A stretch of DNA of 48,845 bases from an uncultured Candidatus Peribacteria bacterium (GCA_964386265.1 CAYLRB010000001.1:1-48845), one strand, 5' to 3'. Shown: positions 23,585 to 27,565, counted from the stretch's first letter. A program made the numbers and translations. Notes: a model not told the origin generated them from the letters alone.

Positions 23585-24223
23585 ATGTCACCAAAAACAA
23601 AAAAACATTTAGCGGCTAAGCCAAATAAAAAAATTAGAATTTTATTAACTAGTCTATTAGTTGTACTGTCGGTTTTTGGAGCTGGTTCATATATTTTTGC
23701 TCAATCAGCAAACAATCCAGTAGCTAACAATGAAACTCAGTCTGTTAATAATTTTGACAACAAAGTAACGCTCTATTGTCAGCAGGTTTTTCCAATTGTG
23801 CTTAGCGATATTTTAGCAGAATTTTTTACTAAATTAGATGCTGTAAGCCAGAATACGCAGGTCGTGTCACAACAAATTGATGATGTACTAAACGCCTTTA
23901 ACCAGACGGCGGAAAAATTGTTAACGGCAAAAACTACGGCATTAAATGAGTTAGATCCAGATCGGAATACTGTTAGCGCCATTAATTCAATCGAGGCTTG
24001 TGAGCAACGCTACGAAGAGGCAGTTAGAGTAAGCCGTGAAACAATGGAGGTCTATTTAGCAAAAGTTAGTAAGCAAAAATCATCTTTAGCTATAAGTCAG
24101 CAGTACGACTACCTTAATAATAAGGCAAGTAATCTGCTTTCGGAATTAACTAAAACAAAAACCTTCTTTGAAGATTTTAATAAAAATTTACCACAATGCA
24201 CAATCGCTTGCGCCAAGCAATAA
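23585..24223 (+). CDS. Secreted helix-rich protein, accessory gene 1 of the giant-gene operon (unknown family)
   Basis: Lys-rich N-terminus plus hydrophobic segment ending IFAQS. Starts 8 nt after the giant-gene stop. Cys at positions 65, 139, 205 and 209; the C-terminus is ...NLPQCTIACAKQ. Confidence 0.7.
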   Translation: MSPKTKKHLAAKPNKKIRILLTSLLVVLSVFGAGSYIFAQSANNPVANNETQSVNNFDNKVTLYCQQVFPIVLSDILAEFFTKLDAVSQNTQVVSQQIDDVLNAFNQTAEKLLTAKTTALNELDPDRNTVSAINSIEACEQRYEEAVRVSRETMEVYLAKVSKQKSSLAISQQYDYLNNKASNLLSELTKTKTFFEDFNKNLPQCTIACAKQ

Positions 24224-24870
24224 CGGCGCCAATTATAATCGTAGTCTTAGCTTTAGTAGCGGCGTTAATCTTTACCTTCGCCAGCTCCGCTACCGCTGCG
24301 CCTAAGCTCTCAAATAGCGAGCTTGTGGGATTAGTTGCAGAGTATCACGTTGAGGCCAATCAACTTGTGGATATGCGCATAAAAGGTGTGGCGGAGCAGC
24401 TAAACCAGCTAAAAAAGAAGCCGTCGTTAAGAGCCGGCATACAAGCCAAATTTCAAGTGCCACTTAATTTGGAGGAACAGTGTTTATCCGATGATAAAGA
24501 ACAGACGGAGCTGAATTATAGTAGTACATGCTTGTATTTTGAACTTAAATTACTTAGAGATGATTTTTTAAGCAAACTACCCAAGGCAGAATTGAACTAC
24601 GATCAGTTAGGCTTGAACAGTACAGAATTACAGTCTCAAGCAGGTTTGGAAAGCGAGATCCGTAAGAAACAAAGCGATTTGTCTTTAGATTTAATTGACG
24701 CAACTCTAACGGCCTATAACCAAATAGTCACAGCGGCAATTTTGCACACTGAAAACGAATCAACATTAGCTGAAATTGAGACACTCCAAGATCATTTGTA
24801 TGATCTTGATTTGATAACACAAAATTTGCCAAACCGCTTTCATAATGTAACAACAAATCAATGTCGTTAA
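24196..24870 (+). CDS. Secreted helix-rich protein, accessory gene 2 (unknown family)
   Basis: Signal/anchor APIIIVVLALVAALIFTFASSATAAP. Overlaps the upstream gene by 28 nt. It has three Cys, the last being the penultimate residue (...TTNQCR). Confidence 0.7.
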   Translation: MHNRLRQAITAPIIIVVLALVAALIFTFASSATAAPKLSNSELVGLVAEYHVEANQLVDMRIKGVAEQLNQLKKKPSLRAGIQAKFQVPLNLEEQCLSDDKEQTELNYSSTCLYFELKLLRDDFLSKLPKAELNYDQLGLNSTELQSQAGLESEIRKKQSDLSLDLIDATLTAYNQIVTAAILHTENESTLAEIETLQDHLYDLDLITQNLPNRFHNVTTNQCR

Positions 24871-26390
24871 TATTATATTTAAAAATTAGTAGAGCGAATT
24901 GGAGAGCATTAGGAGTGTTCTTTTTAGCAATTTTGATGGCGATTAACCCTTATTATGCAGTTGGAAGAACTGTATTGGCACAAGTGGAAACTGAAATTCC
25001 AAGTCAAACAATTTATGAAGCAATAAATGCAAGAATATCAGATATGGCAGAAGGTGTTTCAAGTTTATCTGATCTTCAGTTAAATGACTTTACAATGGAA
25101 TCTGCTGATCAACCTTCCAACCTATACCTTTTGCTTTATCAGTTAAAAGAGAGTGATAGTCATGAAGGTGCTTTGGCGCAAACAGCGGTTGAAAGTGGGT
25201 ATGATTACTTTACGGTCAGAAACGCAATTGAACAAGGATCATTAGATGACTTGGGTCAAGGTGTTGCTGATCAGCAAACTGAGTTACAAAGGCTACGGAG
25301 TTTGTATGAAGCTGCCTTGCCTATTCAGCAAACACGATTCAATTTGGTTATTCAAAATCATTTTCAACAAGTTTTTGCTGATGGTGATAGTTTAAACGCA
25401 GATTTTGACTTAATTCTCGATTTACAAGAGATGCATGACCAGCTTTTTGTAGGCAAACCACCAACTTTTTTTGAAGCCGATCCTAGTTACCCTGTGAATC
25501 CTAATTTCCAAAGACCGCGTCAAGAATTGCCCAGTAAATTTGAGAGTAATCAGTCGGCACAAATCGCTGAAAATGGTGAGGTAAGTCCAAATTTTTGCCC
25601 AGTTGATCCAGCATTGTCTGCTGCTTTACTAGCTTCAAACAGCTTGCAAGAGCAGGAAGGAGAAGTTGTTTCGAATAACTCTCAAATCGCAAGAAGCGGA
25701 AACAGTAGAGGTGCTAGCGGTAATTTTGTTGCCAGTTTATTTGAAGATGTGATTCCTGATTCACCAATACCTTGTGAGCCAGGGCAGTTTTTTTGTGCAA
25801 CTTTAGAAAAAGAATATGATTACGCTCAGAATTATTTCCCTGGTGAGCAAACGTGTGTGGCTTGTCGATTCGCAAAAATCAACGAGAATATGGCTAAATT
25901 AATGGGGGATACGCTCTATCCAGGGAAAATCACCGGTAAATTGGGCGAGTTAGCAGAGTGTAAAGACGCTTTTTATACTTTGCCTCTGGATGTAAATATT
26001 TCATTTTTACCCAATCCTGTTCCAAAATATAACGAAAAAGTAGCTGAGCAAATTGCTAAGCAAAAAGCAGCAGATTTGGCAGAAAAACTTAAGCAACAAC
26101 CACAAGATATTAGTTATTTAAATAGTCAGCAAATCGGTAATACTAGTTCATCAATTTTGGATATTATTGACCAAAGAGGTCAGATTTTGGCAGCAACAAA
26201 TCAGCAAGCAATTAATCAGTCTAATGTTAAAAAAAGCAGTCTTACGGCTCCAACGGTAGATGTTGGTATCCCAAGTGAAGTGGTTCAGAAAATTCAAGAG
26301 TTTAATCAGTATTTGATTGCTTATCAAAAACTGTTACTTGAGATTAGTGCGTTGGTTGAAGTTATTAGCCAAAAACCTAACTGTTCATAA
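24861..26390 (+). CDS. Secreted protein, accessory gene 3 (unknown family, Cys-rich central part)
   Basis: Signal anchor ALGVFFLAILMAINPYYAV. Overlaps the upstream gene by 10 nt. The central region carries a cysteine cluster (NFCPVD, PIPCEPGQFFCATLE, EQTCVACRF, LAECKD); the C-terminus is ...SQKPNCS. Confidence 0.75.
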   Translation: MSLILYLKISRANWRALGVFFLAILMAINPYYAVGRTVLAQVETEIPSQTIYEAINARISDMAEGVSSLSDLQLNDFTMESADQPSNLYLLLYQLKESDSHEGALAQTAVESGYDYFTVRNAIEQGSLDDLGQGVADQQTELQRLRSLYEAALPIQQTRFNLVIQNHFQQVFADGDSLNADFDLILDLQEMHDQLFVGKPPTFFEADPSYPVNPNFQRPRQELPSKFESNQSAQIAENGEVSPNFCPVDPALSAALLASNSLQEQEGEVVSNNSQIARSGNSRGASGNFVASLFEDVIPDSPIPCEPGQFFCATLEKEYDYAQNYFPGEQTCVACRFAKINENMAKLMGDTLYPGKITGKLGELAECKDAFYTLPLDVNISFLPNPVPKYNEKVAEQIAKQKAADLAEKLKQQPQDISYLNSQQIGNTSSSILDIIDQRGQILAATNQQAINQSNVKKSSLTAPTVDVGIPSEVVQKIQEFNQYLIAYQKLLLEISALVEVISQKPNCS

Positions 26391-26401
26391 TAAATTTATT
26401 T

Positions 26402-27565
26402 ATGATTAATCTAAACTTAAAAATCCGGAGCATAATAGTTGGATTAGTCGTATTAATTTTTGTAACGACGCAGTTTGCAATTAGCGCATTTGCTCAAGCA
26501 GAAGAGGAATCAGTGTTTAGTCAGAAAATAACTTCAGTTGAGAAATTTTTTGGTAGTGCCATTGATCCTGTTAACTTTTTTGCACCTTTTGATGATTTGT
26601 TTTTTACACAGAACAGATGTCAGAAAATTGATATTTTCGCTCTCACACAGGAGCGTGACAATGTTGGGCTACTAATTAGAAAAGTGCTCTTGGATGACAG
26701 CGTAAGCTTAGAAGATTTTAAAAAATTGGAGAACAAGTACGATATATTAAGTGCAGAGATTTTCTATCTAAGGAACATTGATTTACTAATTGAGGATCAA
26801 CTTGCGATTCTTAATTCAGAAACACTAAAAGCTTTTGACGACAGAAGGTTAATCGCCGACCAGTTGGCAGATTTTGAAAAAAAATATAGAAAAAATCTCA
26901 CAAAATACAGCGAATGCCATACAACTTTTTCCGAACTAAAGACGGCATGGGGGCGTATAGTTGCAGATACCAAAGGAGCTGGGAGTAATTTTATTAATGC
27001 GTCAAAAAACTTAAGAAACACATTCGTTGAGACACCTGGTATATTACTAGATAATACTCTTGGTACACTGGAAGGATTTTATGAGGCAGTTGTAGGTGTC
27101 CCTTCGCTATTTACTAGTAAAGAAGAGGCGTCAGTAGGCGCAAACAATGTTATTCTTAGCCGTGTTTTGGAAGGGGGAGCATCTGACATATTTGCTAAAA
27201 CTCAGCAGAAAAATAGGTCCAAGGCTATTGAAGACGGTACAGGTGTGTCAGTTTACTATGACAACCGTGCTTCGCAGCTTTTAAATCAAAATCCAAATGC
27301 TAGTCTACTCGATCTAGTTCAGCAGTCTGTAGAATATGAAGGTGAAGTTGGTGCTATACTTAACCAGCAAGTAACGGAGAATAACTTGCAAATCAAGGCG
27401 GCCAGCCTAGATGGATCACTCTTAAACGCCTGGGGCGCGTCAGCAAACACAAGCATTCAATTTGAGCGATACAACCAGCTACTCAATCCTAAAGGGTCTC
27501 AAAACTTAAGTATCGGCCGACAACTTGACGATTTAGCAAAGAGGCAGTGTCGAGAAAAAGTATAG
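26402..27565 (+). CDS. Secreted helix-rich protein, accessory gene 4 (unknown family)
   Basis: Clear signal peptide (IIVGLVVLIFVTTQFAISAFAQA). Starts 11 nt after the upstream stop. It has three Cys (QNRCQK, YSECHT, and C-terminal ...AKRQCREKV). Confidence 0.75.
   Translation: MINLNLKIRSIIVGLVVLIFVTTQFAISAFAQAEEESVFSQKITSVEKFFGSAIDPVNFFAPFDDLFFTQNRCQKIDIFALTQERDNVGLLIRKVLLDDSVSLEDFKKLENKYDILSAEIFYLRNIDLLIEDQLAILNSETLKAFDDRRLIADQLADFEKKYRKNLTKYSECHTTFSELKTAWGRIVADTKGAGSNFINASKNLRNTFVETPGILLDNTLGTLEGFYEAVVGVPSLFTSKEEASVGANNVILSRVLEGGASDIFAKTQQKNRSKAIEDGTGVSVYYDNRASQLLNQNPNASLLDLVQQSVEYEGEVGAILNQQVTENNLQIKAASLDGSLLNAWGASANTSIQFERYNQLLNPKGSQNLSIGRQLDDLAKRQCREKV

Follow-up and report, generated by a model that had tools for sequence, protein, structure and literature searches.

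Immediately downstream of the gene for a giant protein, in 48,845 nucleotides (nt) of DNA from an uncultured Candidatus Peribacteria bacterium (GCA_964386265.1 CAYLRB010000001.1:1-48845; this whole stretch is called the window here), four consecutive genes encode secreted-looking proteins, A, B, C and D, each with a cysteine close to its C-terminal end. We propose, with a probability of roughly 0.6, that A to D are subunits of one extracellular complex that would be stapled together by inter-subunit disulfides and is probably tied to the giant protein. The proposal draws on the strict co-occurrence of the five genes, on the conservation of the tail cysteines and, above all, on the pair-specific covariation of tail cysteines between different proteins. 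The five genes, given as open reading frames (ORFs) with product lengths in amino acids (aa), are:

13107-23576, plus strand: giant secreted surface protein, 3489 aa, whose gene opens the conserved cassette
23585-24223, plus strand: protein A, 212 aa
24196-24870, plus strand: protein B, 224 aa
24861-26390, plus strand: protein C, 509 aa
26402-27565, plus strand: protein D, 387 aa

The genes are tightly packed, with a gap of 8 nt between giant and A, overlaps of 28 nt between A and B and of 10 nt between B and C, and a gap of 11 nt between C and D. The cysteines of the four proteins are distributed as follows:

A (212 aa): C65 (LYCQQ), C139 (EACEQ), and C205 and C209 (PQCTIACAKQ)
B (224 aa): C96 (EEQCL), C112 (STCLY) and the penultimate C223 (NQCR)
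C (509 aa): C246, C305, C312, C332, C335, C367 and the penultimate C508 (PNCS)
D (387 aa): C73 (QNRCQ), C172 (SECHT), about 100 residues apart, and C383 (RQCREKV)

The positions and plus-strand orientation of the four ORFs, together with every cysteine listed for them, are as an initial annotation of this DNA had described them, including the PNCS end and the central cysteine cluster of the 509-aa member. In all four proteins, which are poor in cysteine (0.7-1.9%), the last cysteine lies 1-7 residues from the C-terminus. Among the 28 credible genes of the window, A to D are the only ones with a cysteine in the last 10 residues of the product; a dubious 103-aa ORF (45213-45524) also has one. 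When the mature sequences were shuffled, the joint probability was about 2.6e-4 for a terminal cysteine and about 1.8e-7 for a terminal [QN]C, both being post hoc figures. The terminal-cysteine pattern of A to D is not due to chance.

Homologues of the four proteins were collected with an exhaustive phmmer search of 1.84 billion representative sequences, in which the four mature sequences were concatenated into one query (E <= 1e-3). Each of the 198 matches was confined to one of the four segments and none bridged two, so the four proteins belong to families of their own, four in all. Among the 150 matches listed, leaving aside the window's own, 4 were A-like, 9 B-like, 6 D-like and about 127 C-like. 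Two members carry NCBI names, and both are 'Candidatus Peregrinibacteria bacterium' (MBD3330145.1 and PIQ79765.1).

The four families travel together and with the giant. Thirteen further loci (L083-L095) were assembled from JGI, NCBI, ENA and Logan, two of them, from JGI, through a 5-sequence alignment of a C subfamily and eleven through the contigs of C-like matches; contig ends limit what can be read in some. In 13/13 of them, as far as the contigs reach, the order is giant-A-B-C-D on one strand, with abutting or overlapping genes, and wherever the contig reaches far enough to the 5' side of the A-like gene, a giant ORF is found there. The two loci with taxon labels are both assigned to Candidatus Peregrinibacteria. 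Product sizes elsewhere are up to 4761 aa for the giant (or split into 2815 + 1613), about 180-205 aa for A, about 200-250 aa for B and about 340-385 aa for D. Positional counterparts are BLASTP-significant against the window proteins even in distant loci.

Within these families the terminal cysteine is no accident of one genome. It is kept in 15/15 A, 21/22 B and 14/14 D proteins, and at least one tail cysteine is present in 121/130 C proteins, which bears out the expectation of the initial annotation that it would be conserved in homologues. The family patterns are:

A family: four cysteines; tail [VLF]-P-C-x4-C-x1-3-COOH
B family: exactly three cysteines (a central pair plus the penultimate one); tail P-x-x-F-x-[ND]-[VAI]-[ST]-[ST]-x-x-C-x-COOH
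C family (128-130 members): six or eight internal cysteines; tail cysteines at about -10 and/or about -1
D family: C73-like and C172-like cysteines about 100 residues apart, plus the tail cysteine; tail [RKL]-Q-C-x1-5-COOH

The [Q/N]-C motif that had been read at the ends of the four proteins did not hold as a conserved element. The residue before the last cysteine is Q in 14/14 D proteins but in only 7/21 B and 4/15 A proteins and is variable in C, so that Q is invariant in D alone, and the conserved motif of A is instead P-C-x4-C. The single B member lacking the penultimate cysteine, P0148 (250 aa), ends in ...FHNATSSSS and has extra cysteines at 90, 91, 113 and 137; its end may be frameshifted or a genuine exception. 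The N-V-T-T of the B tail was considered as an N-glycosylation sequon and rejected, because aspartate stands in place of the asparagine in many members.

The counts of internal and tail cysteines behave differently. Internal cysteines are even in number (2 in A, 2 in B, 6 in 94 members of C and 8 in 31, and 2 or 4 in D), whereas the tail counts vary; with the tail cysteines added, the totals of B, C and D in the window are odd. In C, C312, C332, C335 and C367 are invariant and C246 and C305 are present in at least 90% of members, while the tail carries both cysteines in 51 members, only that at -10 in 41, only that at -1 in 29 and neither in 9. In the C subfamily nearest the window, all 22 members have C508. 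Distant members of D have an extra cysteine 9 residues upstream of the tail cysteine, and distant C and D homologues share a C-x8-C tail.

It is this variation of the tails that links the proteins to each other. To follow it we call A3 the 'PC' cysteine of A (C205) and A4 its C209, Bt the C223 of B, Ca and Cb the cysteines of C at about -10 and about -1, Da the cysteine of D at about -10 and Db its last cysteine (C383); the window has Cb (C508) and Db and neither Ca nor Da. In the scored set, which is the window plus the 13 loci, A4, Bt and Db were never lost (11/11, 14/14 and 11/11, respectively). A3 and Cb were concordant in 11/11 loci (both present in 7, both absent in 4; Fisher p = 0.003), and so were Ca and Da (both present in 3, both absent in 8; p = 0.006). 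The crossed pairings A3/Ca, A3/Da, Cb/Da and Ca/Cb, by contrast, were concordant in only 2-3 loci each, with 9-14 scorable, and the signal is therefore pair-specific. Once the two covarying pairs are removed, three tail cysteines are always left.

Two further observations strengthen this result. Locus L087 has Ca/Da and no A3/Cb, L094 has A3/Cb and no Ca/Da, L092 has neither pair and L088 has both; the opposite states of L087 and L094 rule out a general trend towards more or fewer cysteines. A neighbour-joining tree built from C unites L087, L094 and L092 in one clade with three different, internally concordant states, which implies repeated events, at least two for A3/Cb and at least three for Ca/Da. 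Moreover, L094 served as a prospective test. It was picked because its C protein is Cb-only within a Ca-only clade, and the predictions made for it, A3 present and Da absent, both proved correct.

Taken together, the synteny, the overlapping genes, the even internal and variable tail cysteines and the pair-specific covariation are most simply accounted for by a single stapled complex. A to D would then be different, co-translated subunits of an extracellular helical complex belonging to the upstream giant, and the five genes would make up a cassette that Candidatus Peregrinibacteria have conserved. After export through the Sec system the subunits would associate, their C-terminal tails would converge and inter-subunit disulfides would lock the tails. 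In the window the predicted bond joins C205 of A to C508 of C; a second staple, between the -10 cysteines of C and D, would occur elsewhere only, and is missing on both sides in the window. The internal cysteines (2 in A, 2 in B, 6 in C and 2 in D) would pair intramolecularly. The remaining three, C209 of A, C223 of B and C383 of D, might pair mutually, with another copy of the complex, or with a conserved cysteine of the giant. An earlier suggestion that the terminal cysteines form intermolecular disulfides, or another covalent link, within a surface assembly thus gains real support from the covariation as far as the contact between proteins is concerned, and the disulfide is the bond type that we infer from it.

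For the three invariant tail cysteines the best candidate partner would be a C-x2-C-P-C motif that lies 40 residues from the end of the giant, just after its SLH-like wall-binding region:

23442-23459, plus strand: C-x2-C-P-C motif of the giant (C3446, C3449 and C3451), kept in 9/9 aligned giants

In the window the motif is the SCNQCPCP that had been noticed near the C-terminus of the giant, and its cysteines lie 38-43 residues from the end. The giant tails read were SCNQCPCP, VCLQCPCP, KCNSCPCL, ICSTCPCR, ACNTCPCA, ECNSCPCI, DCNSCPCP and ECNVCPCP. Its number of cysteines matches that of the invariant tail cysteines, although the pairing between them is a conjecture. Eight further cysteines of the giant are conserved (2070, 2119, 2217, 2220, 2371, 2774, 3214 and 3353), which makes eleven in its last 1500 residues, all conserved in every locus that covers them. 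Several of the eleven stand alone in the sequence and are thus candidates for pairing with the tail cysteines that A, B and D never lose.

The giant itself, which is 36.6% identical to that of L085 over about 3000 aa, has weak Big_1, FG-GAP-like/TSP3 and SLH-like parts, the Big_1 and TSP3 matches being below the Pfam threshold. The SLH score of the window giant is only E 0.077. However, the window encodes another protein with clear SLH domains, which is listed here:

35229-38348, minus strand: right-handed beta-helix protein of 1039 aa with three SLH domains

The SLH region of this protein matches the C-terminal part of giants in three other loci (L088, 7764-8243; L090, 3769-4062; L093, 1895-2272), and these matches support anchoring of the giants to the cell wall through SLH. 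The complex would serve as a base or scaffold by which the giant, probably an adhesive protein, is held or organised on the surface of an epibiotic bacterium of the Candidate Phyla Radiation (CPR); this surface-holding role is suggested by the Ig-like, FG-GAP/TSP3 and SLH-like parts of the giant and by the remarks on Peribacteria in Anantharaman et al. 2016 (PMC4736985).

Are the four proteins suited to such an arrangement? The models of B and C are helical. AlphaFold2 predicted B (10 sequences) as all-helical, with a mean predicted local distance difference test score (pLDDT) of 76.9 and a predicted template modelling score of 0.62; a last helix of 69 residues (142-210) is followed by a low-confidence, non-helical tail of 14 residues (211-224) that contains C223. 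For C (128 sequences) the mean pLDDT was 67.8, with a helical domain at 88-200 above 90, a cysteine-rich middle of low confidence and C-terminal helices (432-503) that end just before C508. The composition of A and D fits a helical fold, with 2-8% P+G and about 39-41% A+E+L+K+Q (0.407 in A, 0.389 in D). The description of the four as helix-rich is thus upheld by AlphaFold2 for B and largely for C, and for A and D by composition. Foldseek searches of the PDB gave no significant fold match: for the C model the best E was 0.8, and for that of B all matches were generic helical bundles, at E 0.4 or higher.

The N-termini are likewise compatible with export. All four begin with a basic n-region and about 20 hydrophobic residues, followed by xFA|Q or ATA|A, the signals of the window ending in IFAQS, ATAAP, VLAQV and AFAQA. 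The pattern recurs in homologues as FAQ, YAQ or NAQ, and homologues have classical short signal peptides ending in FAQ or YAQ. A to D therefore appear to carry Sec-type signals, in agreement with the initial annotation, and these would be cleaved. Lipoprotein identity was considered and rejected, since the signal end has no lipobox (L-x-x-C) and the first cysteine stands 25-200 residues into the mature chain.

Whether A to D are also related by descent is a separate matter. Pairwise BLASTP among them and against the giant gave no match (best E 0.19). We then compared profiles with hhalign, the families having been enlarged from the syntenic loci and reversed sequences serving as controls (0.1-12%). 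A and B aligned with a probability of 95% (E 3.8e-8) over 106 columns covering their C-terminal halves up to the tail, against 11% for the reversed control, and B appears to be a distant paralogue of A. The other pairs reached 40% (A-C), 10% (A-D), 7% (C-D), 5% (B-D) and 2% (B-C). In the weak A-C and C-D alignments the tails come to lie in register, where Ca faces Da and Cb faces Db; this is suggestive only. One divergent paralogous family, as had been supposed, is hence supported for A and B, while the other pairs, BLASTP and phmmer speak against it. As for the three-cysteine layout said to be shared by the proteins, the internal cysteines of A and B do not align, and the layout is thus not homologous.

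Several alternatives to a disulfide-stapled complex have to be weighed, and none of them accounts for the pair-specific covariation as well. Could each protein fold alone instead, its terminal cysteine pairing with one of its own internal cysteines, so that A to D would be co-regulated but independent? The four cysteines of A could indeed make two intramolecular bonds, the helical-bundle model of B would let its tail fold back, and in distant homologues of C and D the C-x8-C tail could close on itself as a local loop. We nevertheless consider this unlikely. B, C and D have odd cysteine totals with even internal counts; either cysteine of C-x8-C is lost alone, as the 41 Ca-only and 29 Cb-only members illustrate; and loss or gain is matched by a specific cysteine of another protein in 11/11 loci, twice over. 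The strict synteny and overlapping genes, too, argue for stoichiometric partners.

Another possibility is that the tails do converge and that their cysteines jointly coordinate a metal or cluster, or are engaged in other covalent chemistry (thioether, S-linked). Covariation indicates contact or co-function and not the type of bond, the C-x2-C-P-C of the giant and the C-x2-C of C resemble metal-binding motifs, some C homologues have CXXCH, and many of the hosts are anaerobes in which disulfides are less favoured. Still, gain and loss strictly in twos fits disulfides better than a site with 3-4 ligands, there are no covarying His/Asp co-ligands, the His of CXXCH is not conserved and no conserved maturation enzyme lies beside the cassette, which makes this explanation improbable as well. 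In this respect, haem-c identity (C-x-x-C-H) was examined for C and discarded on the same His: the window has C332-V-A-C335-R (25854-25865) and close relatives have CVACQ. One large C-like subfamily (P0019, P0030, P0062 and others) has C-[IV]-A-C-H at the invariant CxxC, where others have Q or E.

The initial annotation had also raised the idea of a sorting or ligation signal of a new kind, and A to D might be diverged paralogues whose C-terminal [Q/N]-C is read by a dedicated enzyme for attachment to the wall or S-layer. The detectable relationship of A and B, the weak differences between real and reversed hhalign runs that always put the A/C and C/D tails in register, the invariant Q-C of D and the presence of a C92/NlpC-P60 cysteine peptidase gene after D in the window would agree with it. 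Nevertheless, the residue before the cysteine varies within the A, B and C families, a hydrophobic or basic tail of the sortase or exosortase type is lacking, as the proteins end 0-5 residues past the cysteine, and a signal for a single enzyme leaves the pair-specific covariation unexplained. The C92 amidase and the Fic protein that follows it were rejected as members of the cassette, which they adjoin in none of the 13 other loci, and no conserved enzyme travels with the cassette in the window and those loci. There is accordingly no evidence for such a signal, and we judge this account very unlikely. No more convincing is the suggestion that A to D are uncleaved, membrane-anchored factors for assembly or export of the giant, their tail cysteines acting transiently in the manner of redox chaperones: the hydrophobic segments of about 20 residues, the constant position of the cassette after the giant gene and the conserved CxxC in C and the giant would allow it, but homologues with classical short signal peptides (FAQ/YAQ ends), the lack of any thioredoxin-like fold or family match and a stable pairwise covariation that suggests permanent and not catalytic pairs leave it with very little probability.

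Some points weigh against the stapled complex itself. The covariation comes from 11 scorable loci and a neighbour-joining tree, and hence from few independent events. The long hydrophobic N-terminal segments (about 20 residues) could be uncleaved membrane anchors. The parity of all cysteines, with the whole giant (26 cysteines) included, leaves the partners of the three invariant cysteines undecided. Anoxic groundwater is home to many such organisms; extracellular disulfides there depend on an oxidase, and no disulfide oxidase gene is found in the window. Finally, the function ascribed to the complex draws purely on context.

The disulfide-stapled complex has partial precedents. In laminin, the beta and gamma chains are joined by a disulfide a few residues from both C-termini. 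Laminin and fibrinogen resemble our proposal in that different helical chains are kept in register by cysteines at the end of the helical region; however, they are eukaryotic proteins with no sequence relationship to A to D and form long coiled coils in the strict sense, whereas the prediction for B is a compact bundle of antiparallel helices that ends in a flexible tail, and the bonds considered here are deduced from covariation only. The OmcA, OmcB and MOMP proteins of Chlamydia and ExsY and CotY of Bacillus, which belong to envelope or coat assemblies, are cysteine-rich proteins cross-linked into lattices by intermolecular disulfides. Like them, A to D would be extracytoplasmic structural proteins joined by intermolecular disulfides instead of, or besides, other anchoring, but through a few position-specific staples among four partners and without any relation of sequence or fold. 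Type IV pilins, too, are small secreted subunits, whose D-region forms a Cys-x(n)-Cys loop right at the C-terminal end, and a pilin gene lies upstream in the window; the pilin loop is intramolecular, though, whereas A to D have Sec-type signals and either tail cysteine can be lost, matched by a loss in another protein. Pilin or pseudopilin identity of A to D was itself rejected, as the prepilin G-F-x-x-x-E/N_methyl signature matches only a separate gene (12342-12833). Sortase and exosortase signals (LPXTG, PEP-CTERM, GlyGly-CTERM, MYXO-CTERM) are likewise short conserved C-terminal motifs on secreted surface proteins, yet the tails of A to D have no transmembrane helix with basic residues, the motif residues other than the cysteine are family-specific, and no cognate enzyme was found in the cassette, elsewhere in the window or in the 13 related loci.

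A further comparison is with Candidatus Peribacter riflensis, of the same phylum, with large extracellular proteins containing cysteines. Its large signal-peptide proteins are thought to act in attachment, their cysteines were proposed to give rigidity or surface attachment, and its genome has one disulfide-formation protein (Anantharaman et al. 2016, PMC4736985). By analogy, these findings make disulfide stapling plausible in the phylum. Those giants are very cysteine-rich (about 7%) and lie in a 14-gene cluster (PMC4736985), whereas A to D are cysteine-poor, and the giant-A-B-C-D cassette, the four small families and cysteine pairing between proteins are not described there.

Indeed, the cassette and its four families appear to be undescribed, being absent from Pfam, NCBIfam, the PDB and the literature searched, in which no paper describing them was found. 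A to D gave no match at the Pfam, NCBIfam and PHROG cut-offs, nor did ten diverse homologues spanning all four families. Against the PDB, phmmer with the concatenated proteins gave 0 matches at E <= 1 and the family profiles gave only coiled-coil noise (E >= 0.04). The strongest conservation is found in the cysteine-rich core of C, residues about 296-395, which is the best stretch of most phmmer matches:

25746-26045, plus strand: conserved core of C, C-x6-C ... C-x2-C ... P-x-K-x-T-G-x-x-x-E-x-x-x-C; no Pfam, NCBIfam or PDB match

A word-index homologue search recovered only the protein itself for C, even with a 128-sequence profile, and nothing for residues 1700-2700 of the giant; low-complexity helical proteins seem to swamp the 8000-candidate list of that search. 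A scan of species-representative genomes through polynucleotide phosphorylase (PNPase), whose best relatives were 52% identical (Saccharibacteria, Chloroflexota and others), found the cassette in 0/80 loci, and a scan of viral contigs with the C-subfamily alignment gave no match.

The other features of the window that concern the surroundings of the cassette are:

272-2053: threonyl-tRNA synthetase (ThrRS), with which the window begins
7492-8826, minus strand: PilC, type IV pilus gene
8823-10274, minus strand: PilB, type IV pilus gene
within the type IV pilus cluster (cluster and pilin span 7492-12833), minus strand: two ORFs without Pfam match
12342-12833, plus strand: prepilin-type pilin gene (N_methyl / TIGR02532 match), 270 nt before the giant gene
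27612-28259, downstream of D: C92/NlpC-P60 permuted papain-like amidase (Pfam)
28362-29426, downstream of the amidase: Fic/SoFic-like protein (Pfam)
downstream of the Fic gene: PNPase (Pfam)
31809-32072: ribosomal protein S15

The giant gene comes directly after the type IV pilus cluster; this is seen in the window alone, as the other loci stop short of the region. Adjoining S15 is a toxin-antitoxin-like pair of overlapping ORFs (32232-32712, minus strand) of 82 aa, with a weak ParE_toxin match (E 0.007), and 79 aa, without a match. A scan of the window for promoters and terminators gave counts equal to the shuffled expectation.

Downstream of the cassette the loci diverge, continuing with HTH_17, UvrA, PrsW, a RecF-like gene plus ThrRS, or other genes. 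In L086, L087, L088, L089, L092 and L094 the next gene after the cassette is a small HTH_17 gene (excisionase-type, DNA-binding) in the reverse orientation, with UvrA after it in L087, L088 and L092; the window has no such arrangement. The closest cassette, that of L085, shows 27-37% identity, and the oxidoreductase common to L085 and the window is only 52% identical. The window ThrRS is 72% identical to that of L092, whereas their cassette proteins are only about 20-29% identical. These differences point either to several paralogous cassettes per genome or to very fast evolution of the cassette. In L092 (18929-20710) and L088 (18583-20364) the cassette is followed by ThrRS at a distance of 6-7 kb, which hints that a second, paralogous cassette may lie immediately left of the window, or again that cassettes evolve very fast. 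Positions 1-271 of the window show nothing of the RecF-like gene found before ThrRS in those two loci.

What would such a cassette mean for these organisms? CPR bacteria (Patescibacteria) live attached to other cells and, to our knowledge, their surface machines are almost unknown apart from type IV pili. Few bacterial phyla are as rich in huge proteins as the Peregrinibacteria, and these proteins are uncharacterised (PMC11573180). The cassette described here is a concrete, conserved five-gene candidate for a CPR surface machine, and it defines four protein families absent from Pfam and NCBIfam. The predictions name individual cysteine-to-cysteine bonds by subunit and can be tested without cultivating the organism. 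More generally, covariation in the presence and absence of cysteines between neighbouring genes may provide evidence of contact where alignments are too shallow for residue coevolution. A bolder and rather doubtful extension is that the five components form a Peregrinibacteria surface apparatus, with a wall-anchored giant and four helical subunits, whose assembly would be set by a 'cysteine code' of two optional staples and three invariant tethers to the C-x2-C-P-C of the giant. If genomes do carry several paralogous cassettes, differing staple patterns would keep the paralogous complexes from mis-assembling.

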